Assembly: GCA_947498055.1 (NCBI GenBank)
Contig: CANMJA010000019.1
Location: 4,524 to 68,523, forward strand
Source: an uncultured Tenacibaculum sp.
GTDB lineage: Bacteria; Bacteroidota; Bacteroidia; Flavobacteriales; Flavobacteriaceae
Length of the DNA stretch: 64,000 nt
Direction: 5' to 3'
Within the stretch, counting starts at the first letter, position 1, and the number at the start of each line of letters is the position of its first letter. Below the pieces are notes generated by a model. The model saw only the letters and a program-made list of their open reading frames with translations. It was not told the origin of the DNA and searched no databases. The translations under genes and the position numbers were made by a program. Shown piece after piece: positions 49,760 to 58,892 of the stretch.

Positions 49760-51025
49760 TTAAATTAAAAACTCAAATAAATTAGGCTTATCATTTAAAT
49801 ACTCTCCATAAAAGTTTAATGCTTTCATTCTTTTTATTAGAGGATCTAAATCTTGTTTTTTTTCTAATTCTATACCAACTACTGCAGGGCCATTTTCTCT
49901 ACTTGTTTTTTTTGAATATTCAAAAAAACTAATATCATCATTTTCTCCTAAAACATCTATCACAAACTCTTTTAATGCTCCCGAGCGTTGTGGAAAACGC
50001 ACTATAAAATAATGCTTTAATCCGCCATATAATAATGCACGTTCTTTTATCTCTGCAGTTCTGGTGATATCATTATTACTACCACTTACAATACATACTA
50101 CATTTTTTCCTTCAATTTCATCTTTAAAACTATCTAAAGCACTTATTGTTAAAGCTCCTGCTGGCTCTACAACAATCGCCTCTTTATTATACATTTCTAA
50201 AATTGTTTGACATACTTTTCCTTCTTCTACAGTTACCATTTCATCTAGGTTTTCTGTACAAATTTTATAGGTTAAATCTCCTACTTGTTGTACGGCTGCT
50301 CCATCAATAAATTTATCAATACTATCTAATTTTATATTTTTTTTATGCTGAATTGCCATTTGCATAGATGGTGCCCCGGCTGGCTCTACTCCTATTATTT
50401 TTGTTTTGGGAGATATTTGTTTAAAAATACTAGATAAGCCAGAAGCTAAACCACCTCCACCAACTGGAACAAATACATAATCTATTGGTGTATTTGTTTG
50501 TTCTATGATTTCTAAACCTACTGTTGCCTGACCTTCAATTATTTTTTCGTCATTAAAAGGGTGCACAAACGTTTTGTTACTAATTTTTTCTTCTTCTTTT
50601 GCTGCATGGTAGGCATCGTCAAATGTATCTCCTATCAATTGTATTTCTACAAACGTACCTCCAAACATTTTTACTTGTTCAATTTTTTGTTTTGGTGTAG
50701 GTGCTGGCATAAAAATAGTGCCATAAATTTCTTTTTTTCTACATGCCAAAGCTACTCCTTGCGCATGGTTTCCTGCACTTGCACAAACAATACCATTTAC
50801 TAACTCTTCTTTTGTTAAAGAATGAATTTTATTATATGCTCCTCTAATTTTATACGACCGAACTTGTTGTAAATCTTCTCTTTTTAAATTAATTTTTGCT
50901 TTAAATTGTGAAGATAAATTGTAGTTTTCTTGTAAAGGTGTTACGGATGTTATTTGTTTTAAAACAACGGCTGCCTTTTTTATATCGGATACTTTTGGAA
51001 AATAGGTATGTATGGTATCTTTCAT
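49760..51025 (-). CDS. ilvA: Threonine ammonia-lyase (biosynthetic)
   Basis: KREDLQ.VRSYKIRGA PLP lysine motif, SAGNHAQG, VGGGGL, one ACT-like C-terminal domain. Confidence 0.95.
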   Translation of the reverse strand: MKDTIHTYFPKVSDIKKAAVVLKQITSVTPLQENYNLSSQFKAKINLKREDLQQVRSYKIRGAYNKIHSLTKEELVNGIVCASAGNHAQGVALACRKKEIYGTIFMPAPTPKQKIEQVKMFGGTFVEIQLIGDTFDDAYHAAKEEEKISNKTFVHPFNDEKIIEGQATVGLEIIEQTNTPIDYVFVPVGGGGLASGLSSIFKQISPKTKIIGVEPAGAPSMQMAIQHKKNIKLDSIDKFIDGAAVQQVGDLTYKICTENLDEMVTVEEGKVCQTILEMYNKEAIVVEPAGALTISALDSFKDEIEGKNVVCIVSGSNNDITRTAEIKERALLYGGLKHYFIVRFPQRSGALKEFVIDVLGENDDISFFEYSKKTSRENGPAVVGIELEKKQDLDPLIKRMKALNFYGEYLNDKPNLFEFLI

Positions 51026-51046
51026 CTATAGACTATTAAATTTTCT

Positions 51047-51077
51047 AAAAAAACAAGGAGCTGAAACTCCTTGTTTT
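51047..51077 (-). terminator. Intrinsic terminator-like hairpin between ilvC and ilvA
   Basis: On the minus strand AAAACAAGGAG-TTTCAG-CTCCTTGTTTTTTT, about 20 nt before the ilvA start. Confidence 0.55.
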
Positions 51078-51229
51078 GTTTTATTCAGATTTTTATAGAG
51101 AATTTTTTAAACTAAAAATTATTGCTTCTTTGTTAACTAGATTAAGTAGAAAAATATATTTTACTGATTAAAGATGAGTAAACAATCTTTTTACTCTCAT
51201 TTTGCCAATTCTTTATAACTATAAATCCT

Positions 51230-52732
51230 TTAAATTAAAACTGGTTCTTCTAATCTTTCTGCTTTTAAAGATTTCATAGAAACCATTGCTTCTCTAAGTT
51301 GTTCTCCTATTTTTTCTATCGGATGATTTCTTATTGCTTTATTTACTTTTATTAACTCTAAATTATCTACCGACTTAGCATCTGTATACGCCTCTCCTAT
51401 AATACTTGTTTCTACCGATTTCATGAAATTTGTTAATAGAGGTTTTGCAGCATGGTCAAATAAGTAACATCCATACTCTGCGGTATCAGAAATAATTCGA
51501 TTCATTTCAAATAATTTCTTTCGTGCTACGGTATTTGCTATTAATGGTAGTTCGTGTAACGATTCGTAATAAGCAGATTCTGATATAATACCAGATGCTA
51601 CCATGGTTTCAAAAGCCAATTCTACTCCTGCTTTTACAAAAGCAACTAGTAACACTCCTTTATCAAAATATTCTTGCTCTGTAATCTCAGATACAGTAGC
51701 CTTTGATTTTTCAAAATTCGTTTCTCCAGTTGCTGCTCTCCAACTTAATAAGTTCACATCATCATTTGCCCAATCTTCCATCATTGTTTTAGAAAAATGA
51801 CCAGACATTATATCGTCCATATGTTTTTCAAACAAAGGCTTTAATAACTCTCTTAATTCTTCTGAAAGTTGATATGCTTTAATTTTCGCTGCATTAGATA
51901 AACGATCCATCATATTGGTAATACCTCCATGTTTTAATGCTTCTGTAATCGTTTCCCATCCATACTGTACCAATTTACTTGCATAATCTGGTGCTATTCC
52001 TTCTGCTACCATTTTGTCAAACGATAAAATAGAGGCTGTTTGTAACACTCCACATAAAATGGTCTGCTCTCCCATTAAATCAGATTTCACCTCTGCCACA
52101 AAAGACGATTCTAATACTCCTGCCTTATGCCCTCCGGTTGCAAATGCATATGCTTTTGCTTCTTCTAAACCTTTATTTTCTGGGTCGTTTTCTGGATGTA
52201 CAGCAATTAATGTTGGCACACCAAATCCACGTTTATACTCTTCTCTTACTTCACTCCCAGGACATTTAGGTGCTACCATAATTACAGTTATATCTTTACG
52301 CACTTGCATCCCTTCTTCTACAATATTAAAACCATGTGAATATGATAATGTCGCTCCTTGCTTCATTAAGGGCATAATCGCATTTACCACATTGGTATGC
52401 TGCTTATCTGGTGTTAAATTACAAACCACATCTGCCGTAGGTATTAACTCGTCATACGTACCTACTACAAACTCATTTTGTTTTGCATTTTTATAAGAAG
52501 CTCGCTGTTCTTTAATTGCTCCTTCTCTTAGTGCATAAGATACATCTAAACCAGAATCACGCATATTTAAACCTTGATTTAAACCTTGTGCTCCACAACC
52601 TACTATCACTACTTTTTTATTTTTTAATACTGAAATTCCTTCTGAGAATTCTGTAGAATCCATTAATCTACATTTTCCAAGTTGCTCTAATTTTCCTGCT
52701 AATGATAGTGTATTGAAATAATTTGTTGCCAT
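51230..52732 (-). CDS. ilvC: Ketol-acid reductoisomerase, long (class II) form
   Basis: [41 protein letters not shown]. Confidence 0.97.
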
Positions 52733-52761
52733 TATTATTTGTTTTTAAGCTTTTCGCTTTT

Positions 52762-53595
52762 TTATTTTGTTTTTTCTAACAGATAAAAGTTTTCATTCAA
52801 AATATCTGTTTCTCTTTTGTTTACTGAATGATTTACTTCTTTAGAATACGTAAAGTAATCTTTGTGTTCTTTTATTTTGTACGCTAGTTTTTCTTTATAA
52901 AAATTAGTTTGTAGTGTTAAATAATCTTCTTTTGTTGTTTTTGAAATTCTTGCATTAAAAAAATGTAATAACCTAGAAAAAGCATTGGTTTCTTTTATAG
53001 AATGGCTAAAAGATACGCTTCCTAAATAATCTCCTTTATTTTGAATATTATTAAAGAAATCAAATAATTTCTCAGCTTTATCTCTGTGCAAAAAGAACAA
53101 TACTCCTTCTATTAAAACAAATGACTTTTTATTGTTTTTTATAGTTTGAATTTTGGTATATAATTCTTCTTCATAATTTTCTTCAAAATCAGCTCCTAAA
53201 AAATGAATTTTACGTTTTGGTAATTCGCCTACCTTCATCCAATTCGATATTCTATTTTTCTTATGCTCAATAATATCTGATTTATCTATTTCTATATGCT
53301 CTAATGATGCATTTAATAAAAAAGGATACATACTAAAACCTGCACCAAAATTGATTAGAATTTCTATGTTGTGCTCTTTAAAAAGTTGTTGAATTTTGTC
53401 TAAAAAAAATCTATTTCGTACACAGTGGGTAGATATTTCTTCTTCAGAAACTTCTTTTAAGTAATCGGTTACCCATGCTTTTGTTTTTCTATTGTTCCAG
53501 AGTTTTGAATATGAATCTTTACTTAAAGAGACATTCATAGCCCTAAACATAGAGGTCATAAAAGCTGTTTCGTGTATTTCTATATTTTTTTCCAC
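52762..53595 (-). CDS. Class I SAM-dependent methyltransferase (LCM/O-methyltransferase-like)
   Basis: 'ETAFMT..RA', 'VRNRFF', NFGAGF, 'EID', LIEGVLFFL; GTG start 3 nt after the ilvN stop. Confidence 0.75.
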   Translation of the reverse strand: MEKNIEIHETAFMTSMFRAMNVSLSKDSYSKLWNNRKTKAWVTDYLKEVSEEEISTHCVRNRFFLDKIQQLFKEHNIEILINFGAGFSMYPFLLNASLEHIEIDKSDIIEHKKNRISNWMKVGELPKRKIHFLGADFEENYEEELYTKIQTIKNNKKSFVLIEGVLFFLHRDKAEKLFDFFNNIQNKGDYLGSVSFSHSIKETNAFSRLLHFFNARISKTTKEDYLTLQTNFYKEKLAYKIKEHKDYFTYSKEVNHSVNKRETDILNENFYLLEKTK

Positions 53596-53598
53596 TTT

Positions 53599-54114
53599 TT
53601 AATCTAACATAGTTGATATTTTCATTGCTTCTTTAGTAATAGCTATACGTCCAGAACGTACAAATTGCATAATACCATGTTTATCTAAAATGTTATATAA
53701 TTCTTCCAATTCTTCTTTAGAACCTGATTTCTCTAATACAAAAAAGTCTTTATTTATATTAATTACTCTCGATTTACTTTGATTAATAATCATTTGAATT
53801 TCATCATTCTCTATTAGTAAATCAGAACTCAACTTAAACAAACAAGACTCTTGATAAATAGTTTCTTCATCAGAATGATAAAATGCTTTAATTACCTCTA
53901 CTTGCTTTTCAATTTGACCAATTATTTTTTTCATTTGATCTTCAGGAATCTTCACTAAAATAGTAATCCTAGATACATTTTTAATTTCTGACTTTGAACT
54001 ATTTATACTTTCTATATTTATATGTCTACGTTGAAATATTGCAGAAATACGATTCAATAATCCTACATTATTTTCGGTATAAATAGATACTGTATAGGTG
54101 TTTTTTGTACTCAT
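53599..54114 (-). CDS. ilvN: Acetolactate synthase small subunit
   Basis: EN.VGLLNRI..IFQRR.INIES ACT domain; FVRSGRIA. Confidence 0.95.
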   Translation of the reverse strand: MSTKNTYTVSIYTENNVGLLNRISAIFQRRHINIESINSSKSEIKNVSRITILVKIPEDQMKKIIGQIEKQVEVIKAFYHSDEETIYQESCLFKLSSDLLIENDEIQMIINQSKSRVININKDFFVLEKSGSKEELEELYNILDKHGIMQFVRSGRIAITKEAMKISTMLD

Positions 54115-54119
54115 AATTA

Positions 54120-55853
54120 TTAACTTAATCTAACTTCTGAAACCGACGAACCAGTAGCAATCATTGGAAATACATTATCTTCTTTTTCTACACATACTTC
54201 TAAAAAATATGCCTCTTCAGATTCTATCATTTCTTTTATTGATTTTTCTAAATCTTCCCGCTTTGTTACTCTATTTGCTTTTAAATGATATCCTTTTGCT
54301 ATAGCTACAAAATCTGGATTTGTCATTTCTGTGGAAGCATATCGTTTATCAAAAAACAACTGTTGCCATTGACGAACCATTCCTAGATATTCATTATTTA
54401 AAACTACTATTTTAACTGCCGCTTTAGTTTGTAAAATAGTTCCTAATTCTTGAATCGTCATTTGGTAACCTCCATCTCCAATTACTGCTACCACTTCTCT
54501 ATCTGGCGCTCCCATTTTTGCTCCAATAGCAGCTGGTAATGCAAATCCCATGGTACCTAAACCACCAGATGTAATATTACTTTTTGTTTGACTAAATTCA
54601 GCATAACGACAGGCAATCATTTGATGTTGACCAACATCACTAACTATAATGGCTTTTCCTTCAGAAGCATTGTTGATTTCTTTTATTACTTCTCCCATTG
54701 TTAAGCCTTCTTTAGTAGGATATAAATCTTTTTTTATCACCTTATCGAACTCTATAGCATCATAATCTCTAAATTTCTGTAACCAATCTTTATGCATATT
54801 CTCTTTTACAAAAGGTGCTATTGCTTTTAATGTTTCTTTTGCATTTCCTAAAACAGCTACATCTGCTTTTACATTTTTATCTATCTCTGCCGGATCTATT
54901 TCAAAATGAATCACTTTTGCTTGCTTTGCATACCTACTTAAATCACCAGTAACTCGATCATCAAAACGCATTCCTATAGCAATTAGTAAATCACATTCGT
55001 TGGTTAATTTATTGGGACCATAATTACCATGCATACCTACCATACCAACATGCAATGGATGTTTTGTAGGTAATGCAGACAATCCTAATAAGGTACTTGC
55101 AGATGGTATTCCTGTTTTTTCTATAAAGCTTTCAAACTCTTTTTCTGCTTCTCCTAATACGATACCTTGCCCCCATATTATAAATGGTTTTTTAGCTTCA
55201 TTAATTAAATTTGCAGCCTCTTTTATTGCTTCTATATTTAATTCTGGTACCGCTTTATAACTTCTAACTGAAGTACACTTTTCATATGAAAAATCGAATT
55301 GTTCAAATTGCGCATCTTTTGTTATATCTATTAACACAGGACCTGGCCTACCTGAACGCGCTATATAAAATGCTTTTGCAAATATTTCTGGTATTTCGCT
55401 TGCTTTTGTTATTTGATAATTCCATTTTGTTACTGGAGTAGAAATTCCTACTATATCTGTTTCTTGAAAAGCATCTGACCCTAGTAAATGAGATGCAACC
55501 TGACCTGTAATACACACCATTGGTGTAGAATCTATTTGTGCGTCTGCAATACCTGTTATTAAATTAGTAGCTCCAGGTCCAGAAGTTGCCATGGCTACTC
55601 CCACTTTTCCTGTTGCTCTTGCATACCCTTGCGCGGAATGTGTTGCTCCTTGTTCGTGACGTGTAAGTACATGATTCAATTTATCTTCGTACTTATATAA
55701 CTCGTCATATACTGGCATAATAGCTCCTCCTGGGTAACCATATAAAATATCTACTCCTTCTGCCAATAAACATTTTACAACTGCTTCAGCACCAGAAATA
55801 GTTATATTGGTTTGTATCTCTTCTTTTTTTGATTTTTTTTCTCTAGTTTCCAT
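54120..55853 (-). CDS. ilvB: Acetolactate synthase large subunit
   Basis: YGYPGGAIM, RHEQGA, TSGPGATN, GDGGYQM...NN ThDP motif. Confidence 0.96.
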   Translation of the reverse strand: METREKKSKKEEIQTNITISGAEAVVKCLLAEGVDILYGYPGGAIMPVYDELYKYEDKLNHVLTRHEQGATHSAQGYARATGKVGVAMATSGPGATNLITGIADAQIDSTPMVCITGQVASHLLGSDAFQETDIVGISTPVTKWNYQITKASEIPEIFAKAFYIARSGRPGPVLIDITKDAQFEQFDFSYEKCTSVRSYKAVPELNIEAIKEAANLINEAKKPFIIWGQGIVLGEAEKEFESFIEKTGIPSASTLLGLSALPTKHPLHVGMVGMHGNYGPNKLTNECDLLIAIGMRFDDRVTGDLSRYAKQAKVIHFEIDPAEIDKNVKADVAVLGNAKETLKAIAPFVKENMHKDWLQKFRDYDAIEFDKVIKKDLYPTKEGLTMGEVIKEINNASEGKAIIVSDVGQHQMIACRYAEFSQTKSNITSGGLGTMGFALPAAIGAKMGAPDREVVAVIGDGGYQMTIQELGTILQTKAAVKIVVLNNEYLGMVRQWQQLFFDKRYASTEMTNPDFVAIAKGYHLKANRVTKREDLEKSIKEMIESEEAYFLEVCVEKEDNVFPMIATGSSVSEVRLS

Positions 55854-55864
55854 ATTACTGATAT

Positions 55865-57541
55865 TTAAAATTCATCTGTAACACATCCGTTAGATGCTGA
55901 TGCTACTGTTTTTGCATATTTATATAATACACCTCTTTTTACTTTTAATGGTGGTGCAACCCATTTGCTTTTTCTATCTTCTATTTCTTCTGGTGAAATT
56001 TCTAAATTAATCGTATTCGTTTCTGCATTAATAGAAATAATGTCTCCATCTTTTACCAAGGCTATTACGCCTCCTTCTTGTGCTTCTGGAGTTATATGAC
56101 CTACCACAAAACCATGCGTTCCACCAGAAAAACGACCATCTGTAATTAACGCAACATCATTACCTAAACCAGCTCCCATAATAGCTGCAGTTGGCTTTAA
56201 CATTTCCGGCATTCCTGGTCCTCCTTTTGGACCTTCATAACGAATTACTACCACATCTCCTTTTTCTACTTCTCCGTTTTTTATTCCTTCATTGGCTTTA
56301 AATTCTCCTTCAAACACTTTTGCTTTTCCAGAAAAATACAACCCCTCTTTTCCTGTTATTTTAGCTACAGAACCTTCTTTTGCCAAATTGCCATATAACA
56401 TTCGTAAGTGCCCTGTTTCTTTTATTGGGTCATCTATCGATTTAATAACTTCTTGTCCGGTAAGCAAACTAGGTACTCCTTGTAAATTTTCTGCTAAAGT
56501 TTTTCCTGTTACTGTTAAACAATCGCCATGTAATAAGCCTTTTTCTAATAAGTACTTTAAAACTGCTGGCGTACCTCCTACTCGGTGTACATCTTCCATT
56601 AAGTATTTTCCGCTTGGTTTTAAATCTGCTAAAAATGGAGTTTCATCTGAAATACGTTGAAAATCTTTCAATGTAAATGCGACATCAGCTGCTTTTGCAA
56701 TGGCTAAAAAGTGTAAAACAGCATTTGTAGAACCTCCCATTATGGTTACCAAACGAACTGCATTTTCTAATGATTTTTTAGTTACTATATCTGATGGTTT
56801 AATATCTTTTTCTAGTAATACTCGTAAAGCTTCTCCTGCTTTTACACACTCTTTTTCTTTGTTTTTACTAATTGCTGGGTTAGAAGAATTATATGGCAAG
56901 CTCATACCCAATGCTTCTATTGCAGAAGCCATTGTATTGGCAGTATACATACCACCACAAGCTCCTGCTCCTGGAATAGCTTTTTCTATTACACTTTGAT
57001 ATTCTTTTTGTGTTATAGTACCGGCTACTTTACTACCCCAAGCTTCAAAGGCAGAAACAATATCTAATTTTTTTCCTTGATGGCAACCAGAAGCTATTGT
57101 CCCTCCATATACTAAGACAGAAGGTCTATTTAATCGTAACATAGCCATTAAAGCACCTGGCATATTTTTATCGCAACCTACTACGGTAACCAAACCATCG
57201 TATGCCATAGCTTCTACAACCGTTTCCATAGAATCTGCAATAACATCGCGAGAAGGTAATGAAAATCGCATTCCTGGTGTTCCCATAGAAATACCATCAG
57301 AGACGCCTATTGTATTAAAAATAAGTCCGATTAAATCGACATTTTGTGTTCCTTCTTTAACCAATTTGGCTAAATCGTTTAAATGCATGTTACACGGATT
57401 TCCTTCGTATCCGGTACTTGCAATTCCTACCAATGGTTTTTGTAAATCTTCTTTTGTTAAACCAATAGCATGCAACATTGCTTGTGCTGCTGGTTGTGTA
57501 TCGTCTTGCGTTACTTGTTTACTAAACTTATTTAATTCCAT
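55865..57541 (-). CDS. ilvD: Dihydroxy-acid dehydratase
   Basis: [32 protein letters not shown]. Confidence 0.97.
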
Positions 57542-57901
57542 GTTAAACTGCTTTCGCTTTAATTCTTAATTTTAAAACTTCTTCTTTATATAAATTATAT
57601 GTATGCATTCTTTAATCTTTTAAAATTTCAAAGGTTTTAAAACCTTTCTTCATTTTCTACATTAATAAGATCTTACATCTTCAAAAACACCATTTTCATA
57701 CTATAAATTTTTATTATAAAAAACTATAGTTTTCTCGTTGAAATACATTTTTAGTTCTTTTTATGATTCTAAATTATTTTATTCGTTTTTTTATTTTTTT
57801 ATTTTGTTTTAAACCAAATGATTTCCAGCGCAAATTAATATCACTTAAACAACTGAAAAACAATTAATTAAACCTATCTCAAATATCACATTCACAGAAA
57901 T

Positions 57902-57938
57902 AAAAAAAGCCTGTATTAATACGTTGATACAGGCTTTT
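57902..57938 (-). terminator. Attenuator terminator (proximal) of the ilvD leader
   Basis: On the minus strand AAAAGCCTGTATCAA-CGTA-TTAATACAGGCTTTTTTT. Its 5' arm CTGTATCAAC is also complementary to GTTGATACAG across the leader stop codon. Confidence 0.85.
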
Positions 57939-57961
57939 ATAGGATAATATTATATTCTGTA

Positions 57962-58024
57962 TCAACTCGGTGACGAACTGATAATGACTGTAATAATTAT
58001 AATTCTGTTTATTATTTTATTCAT
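57962..58024 (-). CDS. Proximal ilv leader peptide MNKIINRIIIITVIISSSPS
   Basis: 20 codons including 8 Ile and 1 Val, directly followed by antiterminator/terminator sequences. Confidence 0.85.
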   Translation of the reverse strand: MNKIINRIIIITVIISSSPS

Positions 58025-58032
58025 TTTATCTC

Positions 58033-58065
58033 AAAAAAAAAGCTTCCTAAATTTAGGAAGCTTTT
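58033..58065 (-). terminator. Attenuator terminator (distal)
   Basis: On the minus strand AAAAAGCTTCCTAA-AT-TTAGGAAGCTTTTTTTTT. AGGAAG just after the distal leader stop can pair with CTTCCT of the 5' arm. Confidence 0.8.
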
Positions 58066-58096
58066 TGATTATATTTTAGTTTAAACATACTTCCTT

Positions 58097-58159
58097 TTAT
58101 CCTTGTAATATAATTACAAAGACAATAATAGAAATGATATTTAAAATCTGTTCTTTCAT
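58097..58159 (-). CDS. Distal ilv leader peptide MKEQILNIISIIVFVIILQG
   Basis: 20 codons including 7 Ile, 2 Val and 2 Leu, followed by a terminator hairpin. Confidence 0.75.
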   Translation of the reverse strand: MKEQILNIISIIVFVIILQG

Positions 58160-58892
58160 GTATATGTGCAAATATTGCTTATTATTTTTGAATTATCCTA
58201 ATTATTTTAAACAAAAAAATAAAATATTTTTTTATTTAAAATAACACCATCTATAAATTAAATTATGAGAATAAATAAGTCTTTTTCTTCTATATATTTA
58301 ATTAGAAAAAAAATTAAAGTATCGTTTAAATGTACTTAGTCTATTTATAAAAAATAGTTTTTACACAAAGTAATTTTAATGAAAATACAATAAAGTTAAA
58401 CACAATTTTGTTTAGCTAATTGTTGGCTTTAACTACCCAAAAAATTGCAAAATTGAATGAAACTGGCTGAATTTGAAAAAAACTCAAGAATTACGAAAAG
58501 TCAAGACTTCTTATTTGCGAAGGAAATTCATTAGAAGGCAGAATATTAAGTATAAACTCTAATTATTAGCTTCTCTAAACTATACACTAATTACCACAGT
58601 ATTGCTAAAATATTTACTATACCAAAAACTAATTTTTATACAAGACTTCTAGCAACAATAATTCTATTAGTTTTTTTAAATTTTTAACATTTGTATAATT
58701 GATTATAGATACAAGTTTTCGAAATAAGAGAAATGAATCTAGTTAATTTTCTAAAAAAACCAGAAGGTTATGTAGTATATTTACTATTTAATATATACAA
58801 TATAAAAAAAACCATTGAAATGGTATCTACATAAAAAAAGATCATAAACACTTGTATAATAAATTCTTTAAAAATTAAAAAATAGATTTAAA

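Follow-up and report, generated by a model that had tools for sequence, protein, structure and literature searches.

Two predicted leader-peptide attenuators in tandem before the ilv operon of a Tenacibaculum species

Two leader units before the ilv genes

The regulatory region described here lies upstream of the ilv (branched-chain amino acid synthesis) operon of an uncultured Tenacibaculum sp., within a 64-kb stretch of contig CANMJA010000019.1 (assembly GCA_947498055.1) that is referred to below as the window. Coordinates are positions in this window, and both the region and the six-gene operon presumed to be under its control (49760..57541) are on the minus strand. Read in the reverse complement, the region contains a short open reading frame (ORF), leader ORF 1 (58097..58159; ATG at 58159, stop codon at 58099..58097), which encodes MKEQILNIISIIVFVIILQG and has 7 Ile, 2 Val and 2 Leu among its 20 codons. 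This is followed by terminator 1 (58033..58066), composed of AAAAAGCTTCCTAAATTTAGGAAGC and a T9 run, in which a 13-bp stem (AAAAAGCTTCCTA/TAGGAAGCTTTTT) closes a 4-nt loop. Terminator 1 was identified both by a terminator scan and in the minimum free energy (MFE) fold, and was the sole terminator-like site in a 1.65-kb scan, against 0.1 expected. A spacer of 8 nt, GAGATAAA, separates its T-run from the start codon of leader ORF 2 (57962..58024; ATG at 58024, stop codon at 57964..57962), which encodes MNKIINRIIIITVIISSSPS and includes 8 Ile, 1 Val and 1 Thr in 20 codons. The second terminator (57902..57938; AAAAGCCTGTAT..ATACAGGC with a T7 run) shows a 12-bp stem in the fold. Both units fold far below shuffled sequences (z of -5.9 for unit 1 and -4.2 for unit 2) and none of 200 shuffles equalled either. 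An earlier account made from the letters of the window (the sequence-only reading) had proposed two complete attenuators with these leaders and terminators, the 8-nt gap and a 10-bp antiterminator, and every one of these elements was seen.

The arrangement of unit 1 resembles that of a classical attenuator. Region 1 (58130..58148; GATTTTAAATATCATTTCT, codons 4-10 of the leader) is paired in the MFE fold with region 2 (58080..58095; AGGAAGTATGTTTAAA), which begins 1 nt past the stop codon, and so constitutes the anti-antiterminator. Nested inside this helix is the inner hairpin (58097..58125; TTGTCTTTGTAAT/ATTACAAGGATAA), which runs from codon 12 to the stop. The region 1:region 2 helix recurs in individual folds of nearly all of 24 relatives, and in alignment A4 it corresponds to helices 1-2, in which 77-87% of cells are paired and double changes are found in 10 of 14 pairs. 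The inner hairpin (helix 3 of the same alignment) is 85% paired with compensatory changes in 9 of 11 pairs, and terminator 1 (helix 4) is 88.5% paired with double changes in 9 of 14. Pairing in the inner hairpin can explain why leader 1 has conserved tails (..SQG and ..ITT), since these track its compensatory changes. The antiterminator is formed by AGGAAGT (58095..58089) and GCTTCCT (58061..58055), a duplex of 7 bp; AGGAAGT in region 2 duplicates the terminator's 3' arm and is therefore able to pair with the 5' arm. The energy of this duplex is -9.9 kcal/mol compared with -3.6 in shuffles (p 0.007), and region 2 and the terminator arm covary among the relatives (GGAAAG/CTTTCC, GGGAAG/CTTCCC, AAGAAG/CTTCTT).

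In unit 2, region 1 (57974..57982; ATCAGTTCG, codons 15-17) pairs with CGAGTTGAT in the fold, and this helix is 94.6% paired in alignment A1, where slid controls give 15-38%. Region 2 (57957..57969; CGAGTTGATACAG) includes the stop codon TGA itself and carries the 5' half of the antiterminator, GTTGATACAG (57966..57957). This is perfectly complementary over 10 bp to CTGTATCAAC (57932..57923), which sits within the 5' arm of terminator 2. The antiterminator is 92.9% paired in A1 and covaries in other genera (GATACGG/CCCGTATC, GATATAG/CCTATATC), and the stem of terminator 2 is 97.8% paired with compensatory changes in two pairs. Overall the helices of unit 2 are 93-98% paired in a MAFFT alignment of 14 sequences, compared with 15-58% in slid controls.

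The ability of the two units to switch was investigated in constrained folds in which the ribosome was modelled as an unpaired block and the transcript was cut off short of the terminator's 3' arm. Under these conditions the antiterminator was the MFE structure with the ribosomal A-site at codons 8-17 of unit 1 and codons 8-15 of unit 2, and in both units it was lost when the ribosome was placed on the stop codon. Across many genera the unit-1 structure is retained (84.7% of cells paired in 46 sequences, with ~50% in slid controls), and the unit-1 alignment has both-side changes in 28 of 39 pairs with 0 of 500 shuffles as good, although alignments built with covariance models are fitted to those models and such pair counts are somewhat inflated. 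Because the register of the unit-1 antiterminator shifts between subgroups, a column-wise count was replaced by a comparison of register-free duplex energies with those of shuffles. By this measure, complementarity between the stop-proximal segment and the terminator's 5' arm exceeds that of shuffles in 26 of the 45 sequences for unit 1 and in 34 of the 48 for unit 2, with a mean z of -2.0 and -2.2, respectively.

Both units possess all of the features of a classical leader-peptide attenuator that can be looked for in a sequence, namely an ORF of end-product codons, an intrinsic terminator, a 2:3 antiterminator, a 1:2 anti-antiterminator and a stop codon at which a ribosome would mask region 2. 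Neither falls into a curated Rfam family; the matches, in a comparison that included Thr_leader (RF00506) and Phe_leader (RF01859), were all sub-threshold and to terminator-like families, with best scores of ~29-32 bits against thresholds of 55-59. The comparative data strongly support the prediction that the region comprises two complete and independent ribosome-dependent attenuators, unrelated in sequence and placed in tandem.

Conservation and number of units in the Flavobacteriaceae

When IlvD was used as the query against 60 related genomes, 30 loci were obtained. All 12 of those in which IlvD is at least 83% identical have both leaders in unchanged order with the ATG, frame and stop codon kept. 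Two more distant Tenacibaculum likewise have both units and 11 other species have unit 1 alone. The consensus of leader 1 is M(K/R)KQ(I/V)LNIISIIVIVIISQG and that of leader 2 is MNxxxNI(V/I)(V/I)IIIVIISSPPS. In leader 1 the ATG, frame and stop are retained in 24 Tenacibaculum sequences as well as in other genera, with insertions and deletions in multiples of three, and leader 2 is kept in 14 Tenacibaculum loci and in ~35 loci of other genera. The SSPPS tail of leader 2 was considered as a possible stalling peptide and this was rejected, since one relative (L007) has NFFKS in its place while retaining the same RNA helix. On these comparisons the conserved peptide tails mirror RNA pairing and not a function of the peptide.

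Covariance models of unit 1 (R2) and unit 2 (R1) were then used to search 401 Flavobacteriaceae genomes. A conservation check across this family had been called for by the sequence-only reading, and it returned unit 1 in 132 of the 401 genomes (108 genera) and unit 2 in 90 (77 genera). In the 4.7-Mb genome from which the window comes, each model has one match (E of 5e-14 and 1e-18), and this, together with the recurrence of the units in many genera, excludes chance as their origin. Two adjacent units were found in at least 29 genomes and three in at least four, both counts being lower bounds, and the unit of the first type is always the 5' one. Direct reading of ORFs at the 29 best foreign unit-2 loci placed an Ile-rich leader and terminator just 5' of the match in 17. 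A strict unit-2 pattern was present in 72 named species, all of Flavobacteriaceae type, among them members of Tenacibaculum, Polaribacter, Flagellimonas/Allomuricauda, Gelidibacter, Lutibacter, Dokdonia and Kordia.

Within the window each covariance model matches its own unit only, in agreement with the earlier claim that the two are unrelated in sequence. Recent duplication was considered as the source of the two units and is rejected for Tenacibaculum, because the model of one unit does not pick up the other. In four other genera (L061-L064), reading of ORFs and terminators revealed three complete units before ilvE-ilvD, at about 240-650 in gene orientation. The unit-1 model recognises the first of these, unit A (M..IIPSIIIA.VIITSAEG..), and the unit-2 model the other two, B and C (MTT.TNIIIISIII...), which are paralogous with 75-90% identity. 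From these sequences, duplication does account for B and C. Taken across the genomes searched, the tandem is one form of a family-wide architecture of one to three units and is not peculiar to this locus.

The composition of the two leader families is very similar: leader 1 has 37% Ile, 12% Val and 5% Leu, and leader 2 has 36% Ile, 11-12% Val and 3% Leu. Codon use was counted in the window leaders (58097..58159 and 57962..58024) and at loci L002-L012, L020 and L028. ATT accounts for 159 of 206 leader Ile codons, whereas neighbouring genes use ATT and ATA equally, and GTC accounts for 32 of 67 leader Val codons as opposed to 6 of 216 in neighbouring genes (about half versus 3%). In the assembly, which is a draft, the only valine transfer RNA (tRNA) found was tRNA-Val(TAC), and this result is provisional. 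In the leuL leader of Escherichia coli the presence of rare CUA codons illustrates how regulatory codons that are poorly decoded heighten sensitivity. By analogy, the GTC codons of the present leaders, if poorly decoded, would raise the sensitivity of the response. A scan of the whole assembly identified single leaders, each with one terminator, before hisG (MSITKLHHHHHICTQAN), trpE (MKTIQLNNWWWKTLNLR) and pheA (MTLQNVWQGFYFYFYYFSKSRDFVI), on contigs C9, C18 and C3, outside the window. Since the his, trp and phe operons have single leaders, attenuation appears to be general in this genome and the doubling to be particular to ilv. Candidate 'Leu' and 'Tyr' leaders from the same scan were false positives, one of them lying 5' of groEL.

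The operon, its promoter and its likely mode of control

The genes downstream of the two units are ilvD (55865..57541), ilvB (54120..55853), ilvN (53599..54114), an LCM-type methyltransferase-like gene (52762..53595), ilvC (51230..52732) and ilvA (49760..51025), all on the minus strand and all identified by Pfam with full domain coverage. The fourth of these, a 277-aa leucine carboxyl methyltransferase (LCM) domain gene, is placed amid the ilv genes, between ilvN and ilvC. The sequence-only reading had put the attenuators upstream of ilvD; this is so, but they do not directly adjoin that gene, as a spacer of ~360 nt (57543..57901) containing a decayed ilvE intervenes. The ilvE remnant (57543..57748) consists of an N-terminal stretch, MYFNEKTIVFYNKNL, up to a stop codon, fragments YENGVFEDVRSY and RKVLKPLKF, and the last 16 codons of the C-terminus. 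Some 15 N-terminal codons are followed by stops and deletions, and ~685 nt have been lost. Relatives carry an intact 296-aa ilvE at this position, and by this comparison the ancestral first gene of the operon is ilvE and not ilvD. Decay of ilvE that looks independent is also seen at L007, L009 and L067. Elsewhere in the genome, on other contigs, are two distant paralogs of the class-IV aminotransferase type (27-28% identity).

The remainder of the spacer is a conserved 5' untranslated region (UTR) of ~155 nt with three boxes. Box 1 (57885..57895; GTGAATGTGAT) is GTGAATATCAT-like in relatives, box 2 (57818..57826; GGAAATCAT) is GAAAATCAT-like, and box 3 (57769..57776; TAATTTAG) is of the type TAATTT(T/A/C)G. 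Box 3, at 22-30 nt 5' of the first structural gene, has been retained by the genera in which the spacer is long. RNAalifold on relatives gave no consensus structure in the ~155-nt spacer, and the fold of the window spacer has a z of +0.4.

A putative sigma-A promoter of the leader transcript lies at 58169..58201, with a -33-like element TTAGG (58201..58197) and a -7-like element AATATTTG (58176..58169). A box of the AATATTTG type is found 16-19 nt 5' of the leader-1 ATG, after a -33-like element TT(T/A)GG, in 10 of 14 tandem loci. The gap between the -7-like box and the ATG is 9 nt in the window and 7-12 nt in most relatives. In Flavobacterium psychrophilum it has been shown that TAnnTTTG occupies -12 to -5 relative to the transcription start site (TSS) (PMC9723704), and this geometry would predict a TSS near 58164 and a 5' UTR of ~5 nt. 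The mRNA of leader 1 is thereby predicted to be nearly leaderless. In the trp leader of the same genome TAAATTTG stands only 6 nt before the ATG. Between the two units no conserved TAnnTTTG was found in the 14 tandem loci, where the gap from the T-run to the second ATG is 8-22 nt; in the window TTTTTTTG is present at the end of terminator 1. A scan for sigma-70 promoters was uninformative (15 sites against 13 expected), the consensus not being that of the Bacteroidetes.

Taking these features together, it is probable that one transcript from the promoter before leader 1 passes two independent attenuators of the classical type before it reaches the ilv genes. From the anatomy, the conservation and one published dataset from a related genus, we infer a single promoter, translation of both leaders, dependence on Ile and Val, and a multiplicative action of the units. 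Transcription would start at the Bacteroidetes-type promoter just 5' of leader 1. When charged tRNA is scarce, a ribosome would stall in the leader at codons for Ile, most of them ATT, or for Val, frequently the rare GTC, and hide region 1. Region 2 would then be free to pair with the terminator's 5' arm, and RNA polymerase would read through. With ample Ile and Val the ribosome would get to the stop codon, which abuts region 2 in unit 1 and is within it in unit 2; region 2 would be covered, the terminator would fold and transcription would stop. Since the regulatory codons of the two leaders are alike in kind, read-through of the pair would be the product of two similar probabilities. In comparison with one unit this predicts a much lower basal expression, a wider dynamic range and a steeper response to shortage of Ile and Val, and three-unit relatives would take the lower leak and steeper response further.

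Several points weigh against this reading, in addition to the inflation of pair counts already mentioned. Folding of the full-length RNA at equilibrium favours the terminator over the antiterminator in both units, and for unit 1 in particular a 7-bp antiterminator of approximately -8 to -10 kcal/mol is set against a 13-bp terminator of -16. Given that the terminators win at equilibrium, control must be kinetic, as it is in the classical cases. The predicted UTR of ~5 nt is unusual, UTRs of less than 10 nt being found in about 4-5% of Bacteroidetes mRNAs. Box 3 of the spacer resembles the Bacteroidetes -7 element and, lying downstream of both units, could let some transcription bypass both attenuators. 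Finally, the TSS table for F. psychrophilum lists low-confidence 5' ends in the leader region, one of them in the run of Ile codons of the third leader (PMC9723704).

The sequence-only reading had spoken of an 'AND-type or sharpened' response. The sharpened response is the best-supported reading, and the serial, multiplicative use of one signal, with lower leak and a steeper response, is the likeliest explanation of the sequences. An AND gate on different amino acids does not agree with the near-equal composition of the leaders and is unlikely. Under such a scheme unit 1 would read Ile together with Leu (through Leu-6, TTA) and unit 2 would read Ile together with Val/Thr or another tRNA pool (having more ATA), with the operon opening only when two pools are low. 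The near invariance of Leu-6 in leader 1 would fit this, as would the Thr in the window leader 2, the use of ATA for 16 of 101 Ile codons in leader 2 as against 3 of 105 in leader 1, and the precedent of the Salmonella mgtCBR leader, in which two leader ORFs respond to two signals (PMC3641672). However, overall composition is almost identical between the leaders (Ile 37 versus 36%, Val 12 versus 12%, Leu 5 versus 3%), one codon yields little sensitivity, and the lone Leu codon is located within the region-1 helix (TTTTAAAT), so that its conservation is accounted for by RNA pairing. Where three units are present, moreover, the same codons are found in the paralogous units B and C (75-90% identical). 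It is the near-equal composition, together with the location of Leu-6 in the region-1 helix, that leads us to prefer serial control by the same signal.

Control may also not be strictly serial for every transcript, if a promoter overlaps terminator 1 or if the TAATTT(T/A/C)G box gives expression independent of the attenuators, in which latter case the tandem would govern part of the ilv output. The conservation across genera of this -7-like box at its distance from the first structural gene is consistent with such a promoter, and five Tenacibaculum relatives, namely L004, L005, L006, L008 and L010, have the box in perfect form (TAATTTTG). It is, however, imperfect in the window (TAATTTAG) and has no -33 TTG partner. 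For an origin at terminator 1 there is TTTTTTTG at its end in the window, to be set against the lack of a conserved TAnnTTTG between the units and the shortness of the interval from T-run to second ATG. Published tables for F. psychrophilum do give extra 5' ends within the leader region (PMC9723704), yet the sigma-motif score of these internal ends is low or lacking and no TSS was mapped next to ilvE. Such a departure from strictly serial control is on balance quite unlikely. We regard as very unlikely the suggestion that only one unit is a working sensor, with the other serving as a plain or vestigial terminator or yielding a short RNA or peptide that acts in trans. In Sinorhizobium the RNA and the peptide of the trpL attenuator are reported to act in trans (bioRxiv 10.1101/606483); 11 Tenacibaculum species manage with unit 1 alone, and terminated leader RNAs would be abundant, the signal from the 5' region of F. 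psychrophilum being well above that of the coding sequence. Nevertheless, the ORF, antiterminator and anti-antiterminator of each unit have been retained across many genera, with compensatory changes, which would not be expected of an element that is decaying or merely terminates, and the variation of the peptide tail at L007, where pairing is kept, argues against a conserved peptide function.

Beyond serial attenuation by one signal, we suggest tentatively, as a possibility that falls short of being probable, that the leader-peptide attenuator in copy numbers of one to three is a modular device for gain control of branched-chain synthesis. Each added unit would multiply the probability of read-through and, as a fresh ribosome loads on each, would sample tRNA charging a moment later, giving an ultrasensitive response averaged over time. 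Duplication of units (B and C) or their loss (the single-unit Tenacibaculum) would then act as an evolutionary knob, and Val GTC codons, for which no cognate tRNA was found, would tune sensitivity further.

Comparison with known attenuators

The ilvGMEDA and ilvBN operons of enterobacteria, with their leaders ilvL and ivbL, share with the present locus a short ORF rich in Ile and Val (and Leu), four pairing regions, an intrinsic terminator and a stop codon at which the ribosome would cover region 2. They differ in having one unit per operon, whereas here there are two unrelated units in series, and three in relatives. In contrast to ilvL and ivbL, the units described here have no Shine-Dalgarno sequence, a very short (predicted) 5' UTR and almost no Leu codons, and there is no relationship in sequence or in Rfam. 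The mechanism proposed is one that is already known from the ilvL, ivbL and trpL type, and what would be new is the serial chaining of units. To our knowledge, textbook leader-peptide attenuation is always drawn as a single switch.

The sole experimental support comes from another species, F. psychrophilum, in a dataset for which a 437-nt 5' transcribed region of ilvE has been printed and one 25-aa leader, MRKFNIIPSIIIAIVIITTAKGML, annotated (Guerin et al. 2021, PMC9723704, SI D9, Table S7). A sigma-A TSS was mapped 15 nt before this first leader and the 437-nt region forms one transcribed segment; in most conditions its signal exceeds that of ilvE by 2-5 log2 units, and in some ilvE rises (PMC9723704). 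The TSS, the excess of the 5' region and the conditional rise of ilvE are what premature termination predicts. The published 437 nt also hold two further complete units, MTTNTIIIISIIIRSFE and MTTNTIIIIISIIIRSFE, that are absent from the annotation of the paper; in each an ATG..Ile-run..TGA frame is followed by GCCTTTCTCATTCACTTGAGAAAGGC (GCCTTTCTCA..TGAGAAAGGC) and a T-run. The element is homologous to unit 1, in that the unit-1 model matches unit A of the Flavobacterium-like loci L061-L064, whose leaders resemble MRKFNIIPSIIIAIVIITTAKGML, and it precedes an operon of the same type (ilvE-ilvD-ilvB-ilvH...). F. psychrophilum differs from the window in having three readable units where the window has two, the second of these with a different terminator sequence. 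The published annotation can be corrected accordingly to three units where one leader was listed.

Leader-peptide attenuation is established in the phylum through the Bacteroid-trp leader motif (cited in PMC9723704), to which the Trp leader MKTIQLNNWWWKTLNLR of the present genome is analogous; this motif is a single unit for another amino acid and is unrelated in sequence to the ilv units. The leader of Salmonella mgtCBR (mgtM and mgtP; PMC3641672) is closer in design, as two short ORFs in one leader each steer alternative stem-loops and so transcription into the coding region. Those ORFs sense ATP and proline-charged tRNA before an operon that is not one of amino acid biosynthesis (PMC3641672), whereas the codons of the two window leaders predict a response to the same amino acids, and each leader is followed by a canonical intrinsic terminator of its own. 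In a full-text search of the literature for tandem or serial attenuators mgtCBR was the only case found; older comparative surveys of attenuators were beyond the scope of that search and may contain a prior mention. A conserved chain of one to three leader-peptide attenuators before ilv genes thus appears to be undescribed. The two cis-regulatory RNA families defined here, so far unannotated and now provided with models and alignments, would better the annotation of the Bacteroidota, including that of the fish pathogens Tenacibaculum and F. psychrophilum.

The nearest parallel in architecture is provided by riboswitches and T-boxes, in which two sensor-plus-terminator units can follow one another serially, and tandems for the same ligand give a more digital response with less leak. 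Tandem riboswitches were reportedly described by Sudarsan et al. in 2006 and by Welz and Breaker in 2007. In those systems the metabolite or uncharged tRNA is bound directly, whereas here the predicted sensor is the translating ribosome, which would be loaded afresh on each unit. In dozens of marine and freshwater genera of Flavobacteriaceae ribosome-based sensors would then be naturally stacked in the manner of riboswitches and T-boxes, and the natural versions of one operon with one, two and three units would provide a direct test of what stacking does to leak, range and steepness.

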